Shown: positions 1 through 7,691 of the stretch, in pieces
Position numbering within the stretch: the first letter of the stretch is position 1
How the letters are laid out: each line of letters starts with the position of its first letter
From: Candidatus Melainabacteria bacterium 17Bon1m
Lineage (GTDB): Bacteria > Cyanobacteriota > Vampirovibrionia > Obscuribacterales > Obscuribacteraceae
Direction: 5' to 3'
Assembly (NCBI GenBank): GCA_032128875.1
Contig: JAVLKG010000002.1
Location: 672,001-736,000, forward strand
DNA: 64,000 bases
Program-made: the position numbers and the translations under genes
Notes under the pieces: model-generated
Database searches by the model: none
What the model saw: only the letters and a program-made list of their open reading frames with translations
Told to the model about the DNA's origin: nothing

Positions 1-1277
1 AGGCGCAGCTCGAAATCATCTGGGCTGAGTTTGATAGCTTCATCAAGACTCTTCAATGCAGCCTCATAGTCGTTGGAGGCAAGAAGTGCTCCAACTGCCG
101 CTTTCTGTGCCTTGATGTAGAGACCCTGGCTTAAACCTTTTACAGCTTGTGGATTATTTGGGCTCATCTGGAGAATGGTTCTAAAACCCTTGATTGCATC
201 ATCTGCCTTCTCGAGTTTCAAACAAATTTCTGCAATGCGTTGGCGCAAATCGATATCGTAGGGAATCTGCGACAAACCCGAACGCAGGTCGGCGAGCGCC
301 AATTCGAGATCGCTTCTGCTTTCGCGAATGTCTGCGATTTTGAGGTAAGGCTGTGCATTTTCCGGCTTGATCAAAATTGAGAGTTGATATTCCTTTATTG
401 CTGCAACCTGATTTCCTTGTTGTGCATAGGCATCACCAAGAGCCATGCGAACCGGCCAACTGTTGGGGAACTGGTAGAGAGAAGTATTCAGTTCTTTAAT
501 GGCATCGTCGACTTGCCCTTGTTTCAAATAAACAGAACCAAGACCGAAGTGGGCGGTTGAATTGCTTGAGCTAATATTGATAGCGCGTTTGAAGTTTTCT
601 GCAGCTTCCGCGAGGCTGCCTTGATCGAGTTTAATTGTTCCGAGCGTCGACAAAGCTTGCGAATGTTGTGGGTCAAGACTTACTGCCGTGCGCAATTCTT
701 GTGCGGCGTCTTCAATGCGCCCTTGTTCTTTATATACTTGCCCGAGCGTGAAGTGTGCTTCTCCGGATGCGGGTGCCAAAGCGGTTGCCCGTCTTGCGTA
801 GTCTTCAGCCTGACGCAAATAAGAATCGCGGTTGTCTCTGATAGTGCCCGATGAAGATTGCAGGCGGTTCAAAATGACGTTGGCTTTTCCCGCGAACGCC
901 AATGCATTATTAGGATCCGACTTCAAAACACGGTCGAGCATGTCGTCCGCGCCGTCCAATTTGAATTGTTTTGCAAGCGCTGTGCCCAAACCAACTGTTG
1001 CCGCAAGATCAGCAGGATTGTTGACGAGCAGTTCTCGGAACATTTCCTCCGCCTCTGCATAACGTCCTTGGGACATTAGTTGTTCGGCGGGAATGATGTC
1101 AGACTTGATCTTGCCGGTGAGGATTTGGTTTTGGTTGGGAGGTGGAGTGGTTGATGTGGCAGGCTGGGTTATCCCAGGCAATTGAGCGCCAGCGGTATGA
1201 GGGTAGAAAACGATCAGCCCGGATACTGCTAGAAGTCCGAAAAGGCTCAAACTTCCTGCTTTTCTGATGGCGGTCAT
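1..1277 (-). CDS. Secreted tetratricopeptide-repeat (TPR) protein, partial (3' end runs off the window)
   Basis: Not in the ORF track. Manual translation from ATG at 1277 (SD AAGGAGG just upstream) gives MTAIRKAGSLSLFGLLAVSGLIVFYPHTAGAQ (signal peptide), then TPR helices such as AHFTLGQVYKEQGRIEDAAQELRTAVSLDP and AHFGLGSVYLKQGQVDDAIKEL. Confidence 0.85.
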   Translation of the reverse strand, partial: MTAIRKAGSLSLFGLLAVSGLIVFYPHTAGAQLPGITQPATSTTPPPNQNQILTGKIKSDIIPAEQLMSQGRYAEAEEMFRELLVNNPADLAATVGLGTALAKQFKLDGADDMLDRVLKSDPNNALAFAGKANVILNRLQSSSGTIRDNRDSYLRQAEDYARRATALAPASGEAHFTLGQVYKEQGRIEDAAQELRTAVSLDPQHSQALSTLGTIKLDQGSLAEAAENFKRAINISSSNSTAHFGLGSVYLKQGQVDDAIKELNTSLYQFPNSWPVRMALGDAYAQQGNQVAAIKEYQLSILIKPENAQPYLKIADIRESRSDLELALADLRSGLSQIPYDIDLRQRIAEICLKLEKADDAIKGFRTILQMSPNNPQAVKGLSQGLYIKAQKAAVGALLASNDYEAALKSLDEAIKLSPDDFELR

Positions 1278-1467
1278 GCAATTCCTCCTTGCAAAGTCAC
1301 CAAATTCCTTATTTCAGAACGCTTCTTCAAGCGACAGGCTCGGCGTTTGCACGCAGAGCACAAGGCGAAGGTAACAGACCTTCGGTCCTGAAGTATTAGA
1401 AGGAGGGGTTTTACTTCGGATTTGAGGATAAGTCGATACAAGATTCTTAATGAAACCTTGCGACCTA

Positions 1468-1497
1468 TTGACAAATCCCGAAATCTTGCCGCACACT
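1468..1497 (+). promoter_or_regulatory. Putative sigma70 promoter for the argC leader
   Basis: TTGACA (1468-1473), 18-nt spacer, CACACT (1492-1497), about 35 nt upstream of the leader ATG. Confidence 0.5.
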
Positions 1498-1531
1498 ACA
1501 TAGGTTGATTCATCAGGTGCTCAAGAGACAG

Positions 1532-1588
1532 ATGCAGCTTATGCAAGCCCAACAAGTTATATCCCGACGCCGCCCAGGTCTCTTTTAA
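1532..1588 (+). CDS. Arg-codon leader peptide MQLMQAQQVISRRRPGLF (argC attenuator)
   Basis: 18-codon ORF (alternative ATG at 1541) with tandem CGA CGC CGC at 1565-1573, between the promoter and the terminator upstream of argC. Confidence 0.8.
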   Translation: MQLMQAQQVISRRRPGLF

Positions 1589-1636
1589 GGCCCGGCGCAG
1601 ATATGGCTTAGCTGATTTAGCACCATTTTCGAGTTT

Positions 1637-1671
1637 AGCCCCGGGTCCAAGGACCAGGGGTTTTTTGTTTT
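1637..1671 (+). terminator. Attenuator terminator upstream of argC
   Basis: AGCCCC-G-GGTC-caag-GACC-A-GGGGTT hairpin followed by a T-rich tract (TTTTTTGTTTT). Confidence 0.85.
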
Positions 1672-1697
1672 AGGGCTTGTTCAAGATGGATACACAG

Positions 1698-2753
1698 ATG
1701 AAGAAGATTGCGGTTGTCGGAGCTACAGGTTACACAGGTCAGGAGTTGATCAGAATTCTGGTTCAGCATCCCAATGTGAAAGTGCACACTGCAGTTTCTT
1801 CCACCAACAGCGGCAAGTCGTATGCGTCGGTTTATCCAGGGCTGTCAAAATTGGCCGATTTCACTTGCAGTGCTGATGACATTGATACGTTGTCTTCGCA
1901 AGTCGATCTGATTTTCCTTGCATTGCCTCATGGACTTGCGGCCAAAATGGTCAGCAAGGATGTGTTAGAGAAATGCGCGATTGTTGATCTCGGAGCTGAT
2001 TTCCGGTTGAAGAATGCCGGAGATTATGATGAATGGTACGAGTTCACTCACCCAAATCCTCAATTGCTCGATTGTTCTGCTTATGGACTGCCAGAGTTGA
2101 ACAGAGAAAAAATCAAATCTGCAAAGTTGATTGCTAATCCTGGTTGCTATGCAACCTGTTCAATTCTCTCATTGGCACCACTACTTAACGCTGGGCTGAT
2201 TGATGAGTCCACAGTCATAGTTGATGCAAAGTCTGGAGTCTCTGGTGCGGGAAGAAGTCTTTCGCTGGGAGTCCACTTCGACGAGTGTAATGAGTCCATC
2301 AAGGCTTACAAACTCGGTAGCCATCGGCACACTCCCGAGATCGAGCAAGCTCTGAATCCTTACGCGAAGAGTTCGCTGGCCATCTCGTTTACGCCACATT
2401 TGGTTCCTATGAACAGAGGAATTCTATGTACTACATATGGATCTTTAAAGAAAAAGATGTCAGATAAAGATCTCTTTGATCTCTATAGTGAATTCTATGA
2501 AGATGAGCAATTCATCAGGATCTTCGATCCGCAATCAGGCGAGTATAAATATCCAGAGACGCGTTGGGTTAAAGGATCTAACTATTGTGATATCGGACTC
2601 AGCGTCGATAAGAGAACCAGCAGAGCGATAGTCGTCGGGGCCCTAGATAATCTCGTGAAAGGCGCAGCAGGACAGGCAGTTCAAAACATGAACATCCACT
2701 TTGGCTGGCAAGAATCTACAGGTTTAACTCACGCTCCAATTTTTCCGGCGTAA
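1698..2753 (+). CDS. argC: N-acetyl-gamma-glutamyl-phosphate reductase
   Basis: IAVVGATGYTG Rossmann motif, IANPGCYAT catalytic Cys, DAKSGVSGAG, DNLVKGAAGQAVQNMN signature; start may be 1686 or 1698. Confidence 0.97.
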   Translation: MKKIAVVGATGYTGQELIRILVQHPNVKVHTAVSSTNSGKSYASVYPGLSKLADFTCSADDIDTLSSQVDLIFLALPHGLAAKMVSKDVLEKCAIVDLGADFRLKNAGDYDEWYEFTHPNPQLLDCSAYGLPELNREKIKSAKLIANPGCYATCSILSLAPLLNAGLIDESTVIVDAKSGVSGAGRSLSLGVHFDECNESIKAYKLGSHRHTPEIEQALNPYAKSSLAISFTPHLVPMNRGILCTTYGSLKKKMSDKDLFDLYSEFYEDEQFIRIFDPQSGEYKYPETRWVKGSNYCDIGLSVDKRTSRAIVVGALDNLVKGAAGQAVQNMNIHFGWQESTGLTHAPIFPA

Positions 2754-2779
2754 CAAATTTTGCAGATATCCCAGAATTA

Positions 2780-2809
2780 TTGACAGAAAAAATCCACAGC
2801 GTGTATATT
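2780..2809 (+). promoter_or_regulatory. Putative internal sigma70 promoter for the argJB leader
   Basis: TTGACA (2780-2785), 18-nt spacer, TATATT (2804-2809). Confidence 0.65.
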
Positions 2810-2832
2810 TGAATCTCAAGGAAATTTTTGAC

Positions 2833-2922
2833 ATGCAATTCAGCAAATCTCTCAGACACAACCGACGATTCCCCCGACGCCGCGCCAACGCGCTTGGGGA
2901 TTGCTCGCATACGTTGATTTAA
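2833..2922 (+). CDS. Arg-codon leader peptide MQFSKSLRHNRRFPRRRANALGDCSHTLI (argJB attenuator)
   Basis: 29-codon ORF with SD-like AAGGA upstream; 6 Arg among codons 8-17 (AGA CAC AAC CGA CGA TTC CCC CGA CGC CGC). Confidence 0.85.
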   Translation: MQFSKSLRHNRRFPRRRANALGDCSHTLI

Positions 2923-2946
2923 TACAACACTGCAAGAGATCTATAT

Positions 2947-2982
2947 TCCCCGAGTGCCCCCATCAAGGACTCGGGGATTTTT
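2947..2982 (+). terminator. Attenuator terminator upstream of argJ
   Basis: Perfect 9-bp stem TCCCCGAGT (2947-2955) / ACTCGGGGA (2969-2977) followed by TTTTT. Confidence 0.85.
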
Positions 2983-3016
2983 CTATGCATCTGTTTTTTG
3001 TTTGAGGAGATCCGAA

Positions 3017-4297
3017 ATGAATTCATTCACCACCATCATCGATGCGCATGCCTTGGCTGTTCAGGGCAAGGTGGTAGAAGCCCCTTTCAGCGGAAGCGTC
3101 ACCAGCGCAAAAGGCTTTAAGGCAGCCGGTGCTCACATCGGTGTAAAACGCAAAAGAAAAGATCTTGCTTTGATCTATAGCGAAGTTCCAGCAACTGTCG
3201 CCTGCATGTTCACTACCAACGTGATGAAAGCTGCGCCGATTCTGTGGAACCAGAGTGTTGTAGCTAAATCTCAAACAGTTCGTGGCATCGTCATCAACAG
3301 CGGCAACGCCAACTCTTGCACTGGCAAAGAAGGCCTGGAAAACGCAGAGATTATGGCTGCCACTTACGCTGATTGCATTGGTGTGAAGCCTGAGGAAATT
3401 CTTGTTTGCTCCACAGGTGTCATCGGCGTTCAACTTCCCATGGAAATCATCACGAAGGGCATCATCAACACGGCGACGTCCCTAGAGCACTCCAAGCTGG
3501 CTGGACAATTAGCAGCCGAAGCGATTATGACCACAGACACTTATACGAAACAGATCTCCGTAGAGTTCGAAGTCGGCGGGAAGAAGGTAGTACTTGGCGC
3601 GATGGCAAAAGGCAGCGGCATGATTCACCCGAACATGGCGACGATGCTTAGCTTTATCACGACCGACCTGGATATTGCCCCGCACATGCTGGAGAAAGCA
3701 CTGAAAGACAGTGGTGCCGATACCTATAACATGATTTCGGTTGACGGTGATACCAGCACGAATGACATGGTGGCAATCATGGCGAACGGACTGGCCGGCA
3801 ATGAAACTATCGTCAGCGAGGATGCCGGCTACTTCACCTTTTGCGAAGTGTTGAAGCAGGTAAACACACATCTGGCGAAAATCATTGTTCAAGACGGCGA
3901 GGGTGCAACCAAATTCTTGGAAGCCCAAGTGACATCTGTCGGATTGAAAGAAGATGCCAGACTGCTTGCACGTTCCATCGTTTCTTCCAGTCTGGTAAAA
4001 ACAGCGTTCTTCGGAGAGGACGCGAATTGGGGCAGAATCATCTGCGCAATGGGATACAGCGGCGCGAAATTTGATCCGGCTCACGTTTCAATTTCTCTGG
4101 AAAGCGCAGGCGGGATATTAGAACTCTTGAAACATGGCGAGCCGGTCTGCGTCAATGAAATTCTTGCGAAGCAAATTCTTGCCGAGAAGAACATCATCAT
4201 TCATGTGAACATGAATACCGGAATCGAGGAAGCTACCGCGTGGGGTTGCGATCTCAGTTATGACTACGTGCGGATTAATGGCTCTTACAGAACTTAG
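3017..4297 (+). CDS. argJ: Bifunctional ornithine acetyltransferase / N-acetylglutamate synthase
   Basis: NSGNAN, AIMTTDT, AKGSGMIHPNMATML (autoproteolytic Thr), DGDTSTND, DGEGATK, YVRINGSYRT; SD GAGGAG before ATG 3017. Confidence 0.97.
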   Translation: MNSFTTIIDAHALAVQGKVVEAPFSGSVTSAKGFKAAGAHIGVKRKRKDLALIYSEVPATVACMFTTNVMKAAPILWNQSVVAKSQTVRGIVINSGNANSCTGKEGLENAEIMAATYADCIGVKPEEILVCSTGVIGVQLPMEIITKGIINTATSLEHSKLAGQLAAEAIMTTDTYTKQISVEFEVGGKKVVLGAMAKGSGMIHPNMATMLSFITTDLDIAPHMLEKALKDSGADTYNMISVDGDTSTNDMVAIMANGLAGNETIVSEDAGYFTFCEVLKQVNTHLAKIIVQDGEGATKFLEAQVTSVGLKEDARLLARSIVSSSLVKTAFFGEDANWGRIICAMGYSGAKFDPAHVSISLESAGGILELLKHGEPVCVNEILAKQILAEKNIIIHVNMNTGIEEATAWGCDLSYDYVRINGSYRT

Positions 4298-5206
4298 GTG
4301 ACCGAAATGACACTGGCAACTTTTAAAGGCACGATATTACAGGAAAACTTTGATGCCCTCCCGAATTCTACTTTCGGGTTGAGTACAGATGGTGATCCGA
4401 TTGTTGTCGTAAAATTTGGCGGCAACGCCATTATGAATCCCAAAGTCCTCGATCAGCTGATTGAGGATACTTGCTCGCTCATCAGCAAAGGTGTACGTGT
4501 TGTTCTCGTACATGGTGGTGGCACCGCTGTCAATGATGCTCTTAAATCCGTTGGGAAGGAAACGCAGAAGATTGGCGGTTTGCGAGTCACAGACGATCAG
4601 ACATTGGAAATCGCTGTTGATGTTTTCACAGGCATCAATGAAAAGCTGACCGATAAGTTTTTGGCAAAAGGAGCGCAAGCACTCAGCTTTTGCTCCAAAA
4701 CTATCAATCCTTTTCTCAGCAAGAAAATGGAATTTCAAGATCCCCAAGGCAATGATGTCGACCTCGGCTGGGTCGGTGAAATTGTCGATGTCGATGCCAC
4801 CAAGCTTGATCGGTGGTTGTGGGCAGGCTGGATGCCTGTGATTTCGCCTTTCGGCAAAGATAAGAATGGGCAGCTCTACAACCTCAACGCAGATCACGCT
4901 GCGTTGGCTGTAGCGACATATCTGAATGCCGACGCCCTGATTTTCCTTACGGACGTTCCGGGAGTTTTGCGCGACGTGCAAGACCCTACTACCAGAATCA
5001 GCCACCTCACCCCAGCGCAGGCGCAAGTCTGTCTGGAAGAAGGGACGATTTCCGGAGGGATGCTTCCAAAAATCAAAAGCTGCTTGAAATGCCTAGACAA
5101 TGGCGTTGAGAAAATCGCCATTTTGAACAGCTTTGCGCCTCACGCATTGCTCAAAGGGTTTTCCGCACCTGAGAAATATGGAACAGTCCTGACACGAGCG
5201 AGTTAA
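4298..5206 (+). CDS. argB: Acetylglutamate kinase
   Basis: VVKFGGNA, VLVHGGG, GLRVTD, YNLNAD, LTDVPGV, ISGGMLPKI. Confidence 0.95.
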   Translation: MTEMTLATFKGTILQENFDALPNSTFGLSTDGDPIVVVKFGGNAIMNPKVLDQLIEDTCSLISKGVRVVLVHGGGTAVNDALKSVGKETQKIGGLRVTDDQTLEIAVDVFTGINEKLTDKFLAKGAQALSFCSKTINPFLSKKMEFQDPQGNDVDLGWVGEIVDVDATKLDRWLWAGWMPVISPFGKDKNGQLYNLNADHAALAVATYLNADALIFLTDVPGVLRDVQDPTTRISHLTPAQAQVCLEEGTISGGMLPKIKSCLKCLDNGVEKIAILNSFAPHALLKGFSAPEKYGTVLTRAS

Positions 5207-5306
5207 ACCTCGTAGCTTAAAATCGAGCAAATAGGGCAACACTGCACAATTCAACAGTGCTTTCAAACGCGCCTAGCCATACCATGACGGCATTGAAGCC
5301 GGGAGT

Positions 5307-7691
5307 ATGGCGATGCCACGATTTGAAAAATCTGAGAACAAAACTGATGGTGCCCTAGGAGCATTTGACAGAGCTTCGGATAAATCTTCAGGCGATGAGA
5401 ATTCGGGCGATAAAACAGCGCGCGGTTTTGATTGGTTCGGCGCGAATTTTGTTAACCCGCTGGTCAACACACTTTGTGTGGAACCTGCCAATGCGATCAC
5501 TCAGACGGTAGAGAGAGCGGCCGGACAGTCGCCTTTTCATCGTGTAGAGCCTCTGCCTGTCCCTGACACTTCTAAACGACCGATCTCAACCGAATTGGTT
5601 AGTCAGAGTGTAGCGTGTGCGATTGGATCTGTCGGACCTTATGCTCTAGCAGGAATGCTTGCCGGCAATGCCATGCGGTGTGCTGGTGCTGCTCTGAAAA
5701 CTGAAGGAGCGATTGCAACCTTTGCGCAAAATGACAAGGTTGCTCAGATCGTAGGAGCTGGCGTTTACGATGGAATGAAGGAAACTCGTCAGGGCGAGAC
5801 TCACTTGCGTAATGGAATAGCTGGCGCTGCCAGCTTTGCGGTATTGGAATACTCGCGTGTAGATCCTCGTGCTAGCTTGATTGGCCGCTCCCTTGATCGA
5901 TTCAGTTCGGGTTTTGTAGGCTCGCTTACTCATGTAGCTATTTCGCGCCCCGATGCTTTTTCCCTGAAGGCTCCTTCTGATATCAATATTTCGTCGAGCC
6001 TTTTGACGGGCGCTTTTATAAATGTTTTGCTCCCTGGCACTCAGCAGGGCTTACGGATGTTGCAAGAGAAAGCATCTTTGAGAATGGGTCGCGGCATTCC
6101 GATCGACAGATATCTGGTGTCGAACAGTTCTCATGTCAATGCAGAAACAATAAACGCTCGCGCCGAATTTACTTCTGCCACCACGAAAGAATTGTTTGAG
6201 CAAAACCGCTGGGCAAGAATTGAACCTGATTCAAAATTTGATTGTTACTTGCCAAAGCGAGATATGGTTTCACTAACGAGTGGTAGCTCTCGTGAAACGC
6301 TTTTGCATGAGCTTCACCACCGCAAAGAAGCTTTGGCTGGAATTGCAGAACCAGGATTTGTTCAAGCTGCCGCCTACTTAAATAAAGACGTGAATCGAGC
6401 CTGGCAAATCTTTGCTCGGGTACGTCGCGCTCAAGAAATTCGAGCTGAAATCGCAGGCCGCCAAGAAGTCAACGCTTCGGGGCTAACGAGTAAGGCAGAA
6501 TTCGTCAATGAACTTAAGAGAACGCTTCCTTCGGCCCGCTTTGCCGGCGGTGACTCATACATACAGCTTTGGCGTCGAGAGTTCCAGGCGTTTTTGCGCT
6601 CTGGCGGAAAGTTTCGACCTGAAGCCGATTACTCAAAGTGTCGTTTTAACAAGGAAATCAGAGATGAGGCCAACAGGCTTTATGTGCGTTTAGCGGGTCG
6701 AGAACCGAATGCCGGCAATGCCATCGATGGTGTGATTGAAAGGCATTCTCTAAATGACGAGCAAGTTCTAAGCGTTTTTAAACACGTAAATGAATTTCTC
6801 AAGCCTAAGTACAGCACTGCCGTTCAGCTTCCGTTGCCCTTTCTTGCGATGCAAACTTTGCGTTTGGTTGCCCGACCGGAAAAGGTCAAGCAGGGATTTC
6901 ATCCGACTTGCGGACCCGCAGCTCTTGAGTATGCAACTTATGTGAAACATCCTGAGAATGCTGCGAGTTTGATTTCGCAAGTAGCGCTAACCGGTAAATA
7001 CAAGTGTGCGGATGGTACTTCAATAACGCTTGACCTATTGAATGTAATACCTGAGAGGACAAAGACTAGAAGTTTTGCGAATCAATTGTTTCAGACTACC
7101 TCTGTGAACGTGCACTGGCAGAGAAAAACTAGTCTCGAACCATGGCTGTACTCAGGTGATGGAATTGACAATAGTATTACGGCTGGTGCCATTCGATATG
7201 AAAGGCAGCCGCACAACTCATCTAGTCCAGACTTGTATCGGCTCATGGACTATAGCAAAAAGCCGGTACGGCCACTTCAGGACAGATTGGCACCGGAGTT
7301 GCGCAATGATATGGCTGATCCTTTGATGGACTGCAACAGTCTGAATGATATCAATGGGCAGATAAATGGTGGCACGCATGGTGACATCGCCTTGCCTTGG
7401 GACCTGCACTCTCAGCAAGTTTTGGAAAGAACACTGAGAGAAAGACACCTGACAGGTCGGCTGCCTGTCTTGACCGTCATAGACTGCAGGCATCCACTTT
7501 TTCGTCATGGAATGGAGGATCCGCTTCCTGATGTTGGTTGGCACATTGTGGCGGTTCGAGGATATGACCCTGCCACAAAAACGGCGTCAATATTCAATCC
7601 GTGGGGGCACATTCTCAATGGTATAAGCACACGCGATTTGTACAAGGCAAACAAAGAATTTAAAATCTCAACTGAGAACAAGAGCCTGTAA
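5307..7691 (+). CDS. Large hypothetical protein with hydrophobic N-terminal region, HExxH motif and C-terminal papain-fold (C39/calpain-like) peptidase domain
   Basis: TLLHELHH motif; QGFHPTCGPAALE (Gln..Cys), WHIVAVRGYD (His), IFNPWG (Asn). Confidence 0.6.
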   Translation: MAMPRFEKSENKTDGALGAFDRASDKSSGDENSGDKTARGFDWFGANFVNPLVNTLCVEPANAITQTVERAAGQSPFHRVEPLPVPDTSKRPISTELVSQSVACAIGSVGPYALAGMLAGNAMRCAGAALKTEGAIATFAQNDKVAQIVGAGVYDGMKETRQGETHLRNGIAGAASFAVLEYSRVDPRASLIGRSLDRFSSGFVGSLTHVAISRPDAFSLKAPSDINISSSLLTGAFINVLLPGTQQGLRMLQEKASLRMGRGIPIDRYLVSNSSHVNAETINARAEFTSATTKELFEQNRWARIEPDSKFDCYLPKRDMVSLTSGSSRETLLHELHHRKEALAGIAEPGFVQAAAYLNKDVNRAWQIFARVRRAQEIRAEIAGRQEVNASGLTSKAEFVNELKRTLPSARFAGGDSYIQLWRREFQAFLRSGGKFRPEADYSKCRFNKEIRDEANRLYVRLAGREPNAGNAIDGVIERHSLNDEQVLSVFKHVNEFLKPKYSTAVQLPLPFLAMQTLRLVARPEKVKQGFHPTCGPAALEYATYVKHPENAASLISQVALTGKYKCADGTSITLDLLNVIPERTKTRSFANQLFQTTSVNVHWQRKTSLEPWLYSGDGIDNSITAGAIRYERQPHNSSSPDLYRLMDYSKKPVRPLQDRLAPELRNDMADPLMDCNSLNDINGQINGGTHGDIALPWDLHSQQVLERTLRERHLTGRLPVLTVIDCRHPLFRHGMEDPLPDVGWHIVAVRGYDPATKTASIFNPWGHILNGISTRDLYKANKEFKISTENKSL

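Follow-up and report, generated by a model that had tools for sequence, protein, structure and literature searches.

We analyzed a 64,000-nt window of the genome of Candidatus Melainabacteria bacterium 17Bon1m (contig JAVLKG010000002.1, positions 672,001 to 736,000) and conclude that the gap between argC and argJ very probably holds a classical ribosome-mediated leader-peptide transcription attenuator, which would sense charged tRNA-Arg and control argJ-argB from a promoter of its own inside the gene cluster. The gap measures 263 nt (2754 to 3016), taking ATG 3017 as the argJ start, and its elements are listed in Table 1 together with those of two related leaders. On the single sequence the case is weak, and what we regard as decisive is the conservation and covariation of the leader in related genomes, on which the case rests.

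The initial annotation of this stretch had read a promoter, a leader open reading frame (ORF), and a terminator in the argC-argJ gap, and all three were recovered at the same positions or within 1 nt of them. The helix 1:2 proposed there (CCCCGA at 2872 to 2877 with UUGGGG at 2894 to 2899) was found as the core of a longer hairpin of 18 bp, and the antiterminator (2893 to 2900 with 2947 to 2954) was found and lengthened to 11 bp. Folding of the 176-nt leader RNA (2815 to 2990) gave a minimum free energy (MFE) of -49.5 kcal/mol (z = -3.10), a value equaled by 1 of 200 shuffles, and the MFE structure consists of the 18-bp hairpin 1:2, a small hairpin around the stop codon (2913 to 2928), and the terminator. 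In hairpin 1:2, the codons CGA CGA UUC CCC CGA CGC CGC constitute the 5' arm. The leader ORF spans segments 1 and 2, and its stop lies about 20 nt past segment 2.

Six Arg codons had been counted in this leader. All six are present (starting at 2854, 2863, 2866, 2875, 2878, and 2881) and include an RR and an RRR run, but codon 8, an AGA, encodes Arg in only 5 of 12 same-genus argJ leaders, our genome included. The conserved regulatory codons of the argJ leader are RR (codons 11 and 12) and RR(R) (codons 15 to 17), the second run being RR or RRR within the genus.

Related genomes were then compared at the same locus. We found argJ in 25 of 41 of them, one close argJ locus, from a record named 'Candidatus Melainabacteria bacterium', being 93% identical. 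Within family f1, that is, Obscuribacteraceae-like, non-photosynthetic Cyanobacteriota, an Arg-rich ORF followed by CUYGGGG and by CCCCRRG...CYYGGGG with a U-run stands before argJ at 18 of 19 argJ loci (our genome included). The sole exception is L017 of genome G015, which has an argC-argJ gap of 128 nt and no attenuator. The module is also kept where argC does not precede argJ (L015 and L048, as well as L137, where argC is divergent). Among 80 argJ loci outside f1, a script flagged RR-containing small ORFs in many, 7 of them with a T-run after the ORF; a leader-like peptide appeared in the script output for only two of these 7, L045 and L048, both Melainabacteria/Obscuribacteraceae records. 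Among the four sequences read by eye (L048, L050, L052, and L074), no leader separates argC from argJ in the Gastranaerophilales and 'Vampirovibrio' loci, where the two genes are adjacent.

Base pairing is conserved in all three helices. Over the 18 sequences of alignment A1, the terminator was paired in 98.1% of cells, with changes on both sides at 3 of 9 pairs, and hairpin 1:2 was paired in 83.9%; for the two helices together (27 pairs), none of 500 shuffles reached the observed pairing. The antiterminator was paired in 93.9% of cells over 18 sequences, compared with at most 56.9% for slid partners. At L008 and L027, segment 3 has changed to CCCCAGG or CCCCAAG and segment 4 to CUUGGGG in concert, and the pairing of segment 2 (CUUGGGG) is retained with either version of segment 3.

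We built a covariance model, R1, from 19 argJ-type leaders only and searched our own 7.55-Mb genome with it. At an E value of 10 or less, four matches were obtained: the argJ leader itself (121.3 bits), a site before argF-argG-argH (C1:491774-491892; 65.1 bits), the argC leader (1557 to 1667; 36.2 bits, with a genome-wide E value of 4e-5), and, antisense to the argJ terminator, a match with E = 9.4. The initial annotation had noted sequence shared by the argJ and argC terminators and had suggested that the module was duplicated. This idea held up well, since the argJ-only model also scores the argC and argFGH leaders and the loop motif CAAGGAC is common to the argJ and argC terminators. In alignment A3 (47 distinct rows), which was fitted to the covariance model and retains two antisense junk rows, points to be weighed against an attenuator, 88.6% of cells were paired compared with at most 53.3% for slid partners, with changes on both sides at 15 of 18 pairs; the terminator in A3 was paired in 95.8%, with changes at 7 of 9 pairs.

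The argC leader carries its own promoter-like site, an arrangement found before all 14 argC-type leaders; the consensus scan did not list this site because its -10 element is weak. The SRRRPG core of the leader peptide is kept in same-genus relatives, and its stop varies, being TAA here and TAG 24 nt downstream in several relatives. An alternative pairing is available to this leader between GGCCCGG at 1589 to 1595 and 1641 to 1647. The third copy lies outside the window, and the genes directly after it are argF (TIGR00658, 385.8 bits), argG (of which the N-terminal part was scored), and argH (TIGR00838, 520.4 bits).

Searched over 151 genomes of the class, R1 gave matches in 15, namely our own, 11 of the 30 other family genomes, and 3 with weak matches elsewhere. 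Those with an E value of 9e-5 or less (n = 20) all lie directly upstream of argJ, argC, argF, or argB, and the same-genus genomes G011 and G007 possess all three attenuator copies. The weak class-level matches L141 and L143 are plain terminators and were rejected. Over 150 further genomes of the phylum, R1 found ordinary terminators only among the loci examined, a count that covers 8 loci and leaves 3 weaker matches outside it. These 8 (L152 to L159; 29 to 37 bits) belong to families f20 and f22, in which 8 genomes gave matches (E = 1.9e-5 to 1.7e-3). They are plain 3'-end terminators without an Arg ORF or an arg gene, and AUCCCCGA..UCGGGGAUUUUU terminators turn up repeatedly at the 3' ends of genes in these families. 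The large searches used stricter Infernal filters, so that counts of weak copies (argC-type leaders, for example, score about 35 bits) may be too low.

The third weak match outside the family, L142 (L163:8006-9700; genome G096 of family f9, same class), is of another kind. An Arg-rich leader, MISFNATSQNNRRRPRRFRVIGRLGLRMKS, is accompanied there by a terminator and by TCGACA-N17-TATAAT, and precedes a monocistronic ORF of 503 aa that has no Pfam or NCBIfam match and falls, in the Atlas, in Melainabacteria hypothetical clusters only.

We compiled 44 leaders (24 of the argJ/argB type, 5 of the argF type, 14 of the argC type, and 1 other); since they include related genomes, the counts are descriptive rather than independent. 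All 44 contain an ORF that runs through segments 1 and 2, has at least two consecutive Arg codons, and closes before the terminator, starting mostly with ATG and in a few cases with GTG or TTG. The argJ leader has RR and RRR as its tandem runs, the argC leader has RRR, and the argF leader has RR-x-RR. Arg makes up 3 of 18, 6 of 29, and 5 of 26 codons of the argC, argJ, and argF leaders, respectively (17 to 21%), compared with 5.3% of 860,916 codons of long ORFs. Furthermore, the Arg codons of the tandem runs vary synonymously: 163 of 172 are CGA, CGC, or CGT, and 72 are CGA, a codon that genome-wide accounts for 13% of those for Arg. Genes for tRNA-Arg are present with the anticodons ACG (2), UCG, CCG, UCU, and CCU.

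Upstream of 43 of the 44 leaders we found TTGACA (with at most 1 mismatch) and, 16 to 19 nt downstream of it, xAxxxT; TTGACA is exact in 40, in every case with a spacer of 17 or 18 nt. The unit inside the cluster, like each of the others, therefore looks to have its own promoter. It had been proposed that argJB is regulated separately, and a separately promoted and separately attenuated unit is what the sequences point to: the promoter, the leader ORF, and the predicted switch between the 1:2, 2:3, and 3:4 pairings form a self-contained set that recurs across the family. No terminator was found between argC and the internal promoter of argJ, so that argC read-through would meet the second attenuator and, as the initial annotation put it, would be filtered twice. 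The six Arg codons of the argJ leader against the three of the argC leader might set different thresholds.

The predicted RNA structures change with the part of the leader that is left free to fold. RNA 2819 to 2968, which comprises everything before segment 4, folds into hairpin 1:2 with segment 3 unpaired. With RNA 2879 to 2968 or 2888 to 2968, corresponding to stalls at codons 11 to 15, the MFE structure is the 11-bp antiterminator (-25.5 kcal/mol). The 2:3 antiterminator is also the MFE structure of the 5'-trimmed argC leader (-19.9 kcal/mol) and of the 5'-trimmed argF leader (-25.3 kcal/mol).

We infer leader translation, ribosome stalling, and the regulatory outcome, and propose that they would proceed as follows. 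Transcription would begin a few nucleotides past the -10 element (2804 to 2809), and a ribosome would load at AAGGA/ATG 2833. When Arg-tRNA is plentiful, the ribosome would pass the Arg codons and segment 2 to reach the stop at 2920; segment 2 would be covered while segments 3 and 4 are made, or would be re-paired with segment 1 behind the ribosome, and segment 3 would be free to form the 3:4 terminator (2947 to 2977 plus U5), stopping transcription before argJ. When Arg-tRNA is scarce, the ribosome would stall on CGA CGA (2863 to 2868) or on CGA CGC CGC (2875 to 2883), both of them in the 5' arm of hairpin 1:2. Segment 2 (2890 to 2900) would thereby be freed and would pair with segment 3 (2947 to 2957) ahead of the synthesis of segment 4, no terminator would form, and argJ-argB would be transcribed. 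If the leader is not translated, 1:2 and 3:4 would form, giving termination by default. The argC (1468 to 1666) and argFGH copies would operate likewise, and the three together would make up a three-unit arginine attenuator regulon.

Several observations weigh against an attenuator. Promoter-like sites are not enriched between 1200 and 5400 (3, against 4.3 ± 2.0 expected from shuffles), a simple consensus scan listed the argJ promoter but neither the argJ nor the argC terminator, and the U-run of the argJ terminator has only 5 U. The Shine-Dalgarno-like sequences of the argC and argF leaders are weak. Part of segment 2 would be covered by a ribosome stalled at codon 17 of the argJ leader, and the alternative fold that is then left is a weaker one. 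At equilibrium, with a 28-nt ribosome footprint masked and segment 4 present, the argJ terminator was favored at 5 of 6 Arg stalls (P = 0.80 to 0.97), the exception being codon 15 (P = 0.13), and the terminator was favored at every stall in the argC and argF leaders (P = 0.79 to 0.99). The switch must therefore be kinetic, with 2:3 forming before segment 4 emerges; textbook attenuators likewise depend on kinetic switching. Finally, four runs filed as transcriptomic RNA-Seq (X1 to X4) gave near-identical contigs of 21 to 49 kb over window positions 1300 to 5300; these contigs behave like DNA, show no transcript starts or ends, and give no transcript levels, and this assembly may derive from the four runs.

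One rival explanation is unregulated punctuation, in which an ordinary terminator ends argC transcripts, an ordinary argJ promoter follows or precedes it, and the small ORF, like the alternative pairing, is incidental. In its favor, besides the preference for the terminator at equilibrium, terminators of the AUCCCCGA..UCGGGGAUUUUU type often stand at the 3' ends of genes in other Cyanobacteriota, where they are the sole R1 matches among the loci examined. A loose screen of the genome (a small ORF containing RR and 3 or more Arg codons, then a hairpin and T5) gave 612 candidates, of which 162 were intergenic; the pattern of an Arg ORF, a hairpin, and T5 alone is therefore not specific, and the screen was dropped in favor of the covariance model because it was too unspecific. 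However, transcripts from the argJ promoter must cross the terminator, since this promoter stands upstream of it rather than after it. Moreover, the module stands before argJ at the three loci where no argC precedes it and at the start of argC and argF units, the tandem Arg codons are in frame in every one of the 44 leaders, and the 2:3 pairing is conserved at the level given above. We thus consider punctuation very unlikely.

Also highly improbable, in our view, is an attenuator operated by a protein or a ligand, that is, by an RNA-binding protein, a riboswitch-like fold, or a T-box, with the ORF untranslated or irrelevant. In its favor are a block between segments 2 and 3 whose nucleotide sequence is kept in all three leader types, and the weak Shine-Dalgarno-like sequences in two of the three leaders; the accessible text of one study, moreover, reports T-box control of arginine genes in some bacteria (PMC1262725). 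However, no T-box, riboswitch, or other Rfam family matched above its gathering score: a cmscan of 1200 to 3100 against Rfam 15 at an E value of 10 or less returned 6 matches, all far below the gathering scores and with no leader family or T-box among them. The structure consists of three hairpin alternatives, without a complex aptamer-like domain. Outside the paired segments and the conserved block there is no sequence conservation between genera, whereas the frame, the start codon, and the tandem Arg codons are kept. The leader stop codon falls within this block, but the frame in which the block is read varies from genome to genome, and the 3' part of the block forms the small hairpin at 2913 to 2928; the block may be a polymerase pause site 8 to 16 nt past hairpin 1:2, or a double stop.

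The least probable explanation is an arginine-dependent arrest by the nascent peptide, as with the fungal arginine attenuator peptide or TnaC/SpeFL, in which free arginine would act through the peptide sequence, and not through a lack of Arg-tRNA, to stall the ribosome. High conservation of the entire peptide within the genus (MQFSKSL.HNRRFPRR(R)ANALGD..) and conservation of the region of the stop codon speak for it. Between genera, however, the leader peptides share little beyond the Arg pairs and the residues that segment 2 specifies, the stop block is read in different frames across genomes, and, judging from the geometry, a stall at high arginine would free segment 2 and raise expression, the wrong sign for a biosynthetic pathway.

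Returning to the attenuator that senses charged tRNA-Arg, we compared its distribution with that of ArgR. A search directed at the ArgR protein alone, by way of its C-terminal domain (PF02863), found this domain in none of 13 genomes of the genus (our own being 93% complete), while the positive control gave 8 of 14 named genomes. PF02863 is present in 21 of 91 family genomes. Genome G015 (L017/L150, contig C206), whose argJ has no attenuator, carries an ArgR-domain gene on the same contig, a few kilobases away. A simple exclusion between ArgR and the attenuator was rejected, as ArgR occurs in 3 of 12 genomes with an R1 match and in 3 of 19 without one (f1 genomes covered by both searches). Four genomes (G014, G145, G017, and G098) have ArgR together with one attenuator, so the two are not mutually exclusive, which we count among the points against our reading. 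No ArgR was found in the genera with two or three attenuators (g1, g10, g11, and g31), a trend among related genomes that does not amount to a test.

A broader reading of these data is, in our judgment, slightly more likely than not. Three paralogous attenuators sensing Arg-tRNA, before argC, argJB, and argFGH and each with its own promoter, would have arisen from one module by duplication within the Obscuribacteraceae and would replace ArgR where it was not found, while the conserved UGA block would act as a polymerase pause site or a ribosome-release site that synchronizes both machines.

Table 1. Elements of the three arginine leaders and neighboring genes (window coordinates unless a contig is named)
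Feature	Position	Strand	Details
TPR-repeat protein gene	3-1277	-	runs off the 5' end of the window; numerous but weak TPR-family matches, with no curated cut-off exceeded
argC promoter-like site, TTGACA-N18-CACACT	1468-1497	+	-35 at 1468-1473, -10 at 1492-1497
argC leader ORF, MQLMQAQQVISRRRPGLF	1532-1588	+	three tandem Arg codons at 1565-1573
argC terminator	1639-1666	+	CCCCGGGUCC 1639-1648, GGACCAGGGG 1651-1660, U6 1661-1666
argC (N-acetyl-gamma-glutamyl-phosphate reductase)	1686/1698-2753	+	TIGR01850, 455.5 bits (cut-off 233.6); stop TAA 2751-2753
argJ promoter-like site, TTGACA-N18-TATATT	2780-2809	+	-35 at 2780-2785, -10 at 2804-2809; 11/12 consensus matches
Shine-Dalgarno-like AAGGA	2818-2822	+	10 nt 5' of the leader ATG; CAAGGAA kept in most same-genus gaps
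argJ leader ORF, 29 codons, MQFSKSLRHNRRFPRRRANALGDCSHTLI	2833-2922	+	ATG 2833, TAA 2920-2922
Hairpin 1:2, 18 bp	2863-2884 with 2889-2907	+	MFE fold; 3' arm includes segment 2
Segment 2, GCGCUUGGGGA	2890-2900	+	alternative partners: segment 1 or segment 3 (2947-2957)
Antiterminator 2:3, 11 bp	2890-2900 with 2947-2957	+	core CUUGGGGA 2893-2900 / UCCCCGAG 2947-2954
Conserved stop block, ~GG-CU-nnG-YUGAU-YUAG	2908-2928 (also 1603-1620; L126 ~1545-1565)	+	UGA 2915-2917 invariant in alignments A1 and A2
Predicted intrinsic terminator of the argJ leader	2947-2982	+	UCCCCGAGU 2947-2955, 13-nt loop, ACUCGGGGA 2969-2977, U5 2978-2982
argJ (bifunctional ornithine acetyltransferase / N-acetylglutamate synthase)	3017-4297	+	TIGR00120, 490.9 bits (cut-off 298)
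argB (acetylglutamate kinase)	4307-5206	+	TIGR00761, 200.9 bits (cut-off 151.3)
Third attenuator, before argF-argG-argH	G000:C1:491751-491891		outside the window (loci L126, L129; region C1:491700-495651); TTGACA-N17-TAACGT, ORF MTFANYTSNNRRTRRVLLNSGPAGLR, terminator

The automatic ORF track places the argJ start at 2954, which the initial annotation had suspected to be wrong. We agree that it probably is: position 2954 falls inside the terminator stem, GAGGAG (3004 to 3009) stands 8 nt 5' of ATG 3017, and the alignment with same-genus ArgJ proteins (83 to 99% identity) begins at residue 1 of the 3017 start. The frame that is open upstream of the argJ start varies in length among same-genus relatives (430 to 495 aa). 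argJ thus most likely begins at ATG 3017. For argC, ATG 1698 appears more likely than ATG 1686 because G004a and G004b have the second ATG only. argB may start at ATG 4307 or at GTG 4298, the start having been picked from a comparison with L136. Right after argB, an ORF of 794 aa (5307 to 7691, plus strand) gave no NCBIfam, Pfam, or Atlas match.

The proposed mechanism resembles that of the enterobacterial leader-peptide attenuators (trpL, hisL, leuL, thrL, pheL, and ilvL/ivbL; Rfam has Trp, His, Leu, and Thr leader families). As in these, a short ORF carries tandem cognate codons, which lie in segment 1, and mutually exclusive 1:2, 2:3, and 3:4 pairings and an intrinsic terminator precede the first structural gene. 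Unlike these, the leaders described here concern arginine and the units argJB, argC, and argFGH of a non-photosynthetic cyanobacterial host, show no sequence or Rfam relationship to the known families, and form a regulon of three paralogues, one of them located inside a gene cluster with a promoter of its own. They also differ in where the stop codon lies. In trpL, the stop lies between segments 1 and 2, and segment 2 is masked when the ribosome is at the stop. The argJ leader ORF, in contrast, covers segments 1 and 2, and with a stop about 20 nt past segment 2, termination would be explained by passage of the ribosome over segment 2 or by the re-forming of 1:2, and not by masking at the stop.

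Two other systems invite comparison. The Bacillus subtilis pyr operon has three PyrR-dependent attenuators, which are operated by a protein and share one promoter. As in pyr, a second attenuator is located between genes of the cluster, and read-through transcripts would meet more than one checkpoint; unlike in pyr, each attenuator is proposed to be operated by the ribosome and has its own promoter-like site. ArgR/AhrC is a DNA-binding repressor that senses free arginine, and the control proposed here is similar to it in that several arg units would be coordinated by the arginine supply.

Closest in the amino acid sensed is the Salmonella speF leader. According to the accessible text of PMC6386406, orf34 of this leader has two consecutive Arg codons and senses arginine via ribosome pausing, upon which the mRNA refolds; the output is Rho-dependent termination, sequestration of the ribosome-binding site, and RNase G decay of a polyamine gene (PMC6386406). 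Here, in contrast, a terminator/antiterminator pair of the intrinsic type is predicted, before arginine-biosynthesis genes. Upstream ORFs (uORFs) have also been put forward as attenuator candidates, among them the cysS uORFC-8-2 motif and the Corynebacterium ilvB uORF (PMC8632094; PMC11109978, as far as their accessible texts go). Like these, the leaders described here are restricted to a lineage, carry tandem cognate codons in a stem with a terminator after it, and were identified through their conservation, whereas the two earlier ones serve other amino acids (Cys; Ile/Leu/Val) in other phyla.

In their accessible texts, the same two papers describe Cys, Phe, and Ile/Leu/Val uORF attenuators (PMC8632094; PMC11109978). 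The word 'arginine' occurs only twice in the accessible text of PMC8632094, once with reference to carA and carbamoyl-phosphate synthase, and not at all in the main text of PMC11109978 (supplement aside), and neither text therefore appears to describe an arginine leader. The accessible text of PMC1262725 gives T-boxes as the only RNA regulators for arginine and reports that no RNA element was found in Actinobacteria. The main text of PMC2965389 (supplement aside) contains no occurrence of arginine, argC, argJ, or argG. Overall, the full-text literature searched, supplements aside, yielded no Arg-codon leader-peptide attenuator before arginine-biosynthesis genes. What would be new is a textbook mechanism with a new specificity, in a new lineage, in three paralogues, and with one copy inside a gene cluster.

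Arginine biosynthesis is a textbook case of control by a repressor, ArgR. If our reading is correct, an arginine-specific class of classical attenuation that we did not find in the literature searched would exist, and leader-peptide attenuation would occur within the cyanobacterial phylum. The three leaders would also offer a clean natural example of the duplication of a regulatory module within a regulon and of an attenuator inside a gene cluster. For annotators, the comparison provides a corrected argJ start and a covariance model whose hits within the family are arg-linked sites only. Above all, it suggests how an uncultured, non-photosynthetic lineage with no detectable ArgR may coordinate its three arg transcription units.

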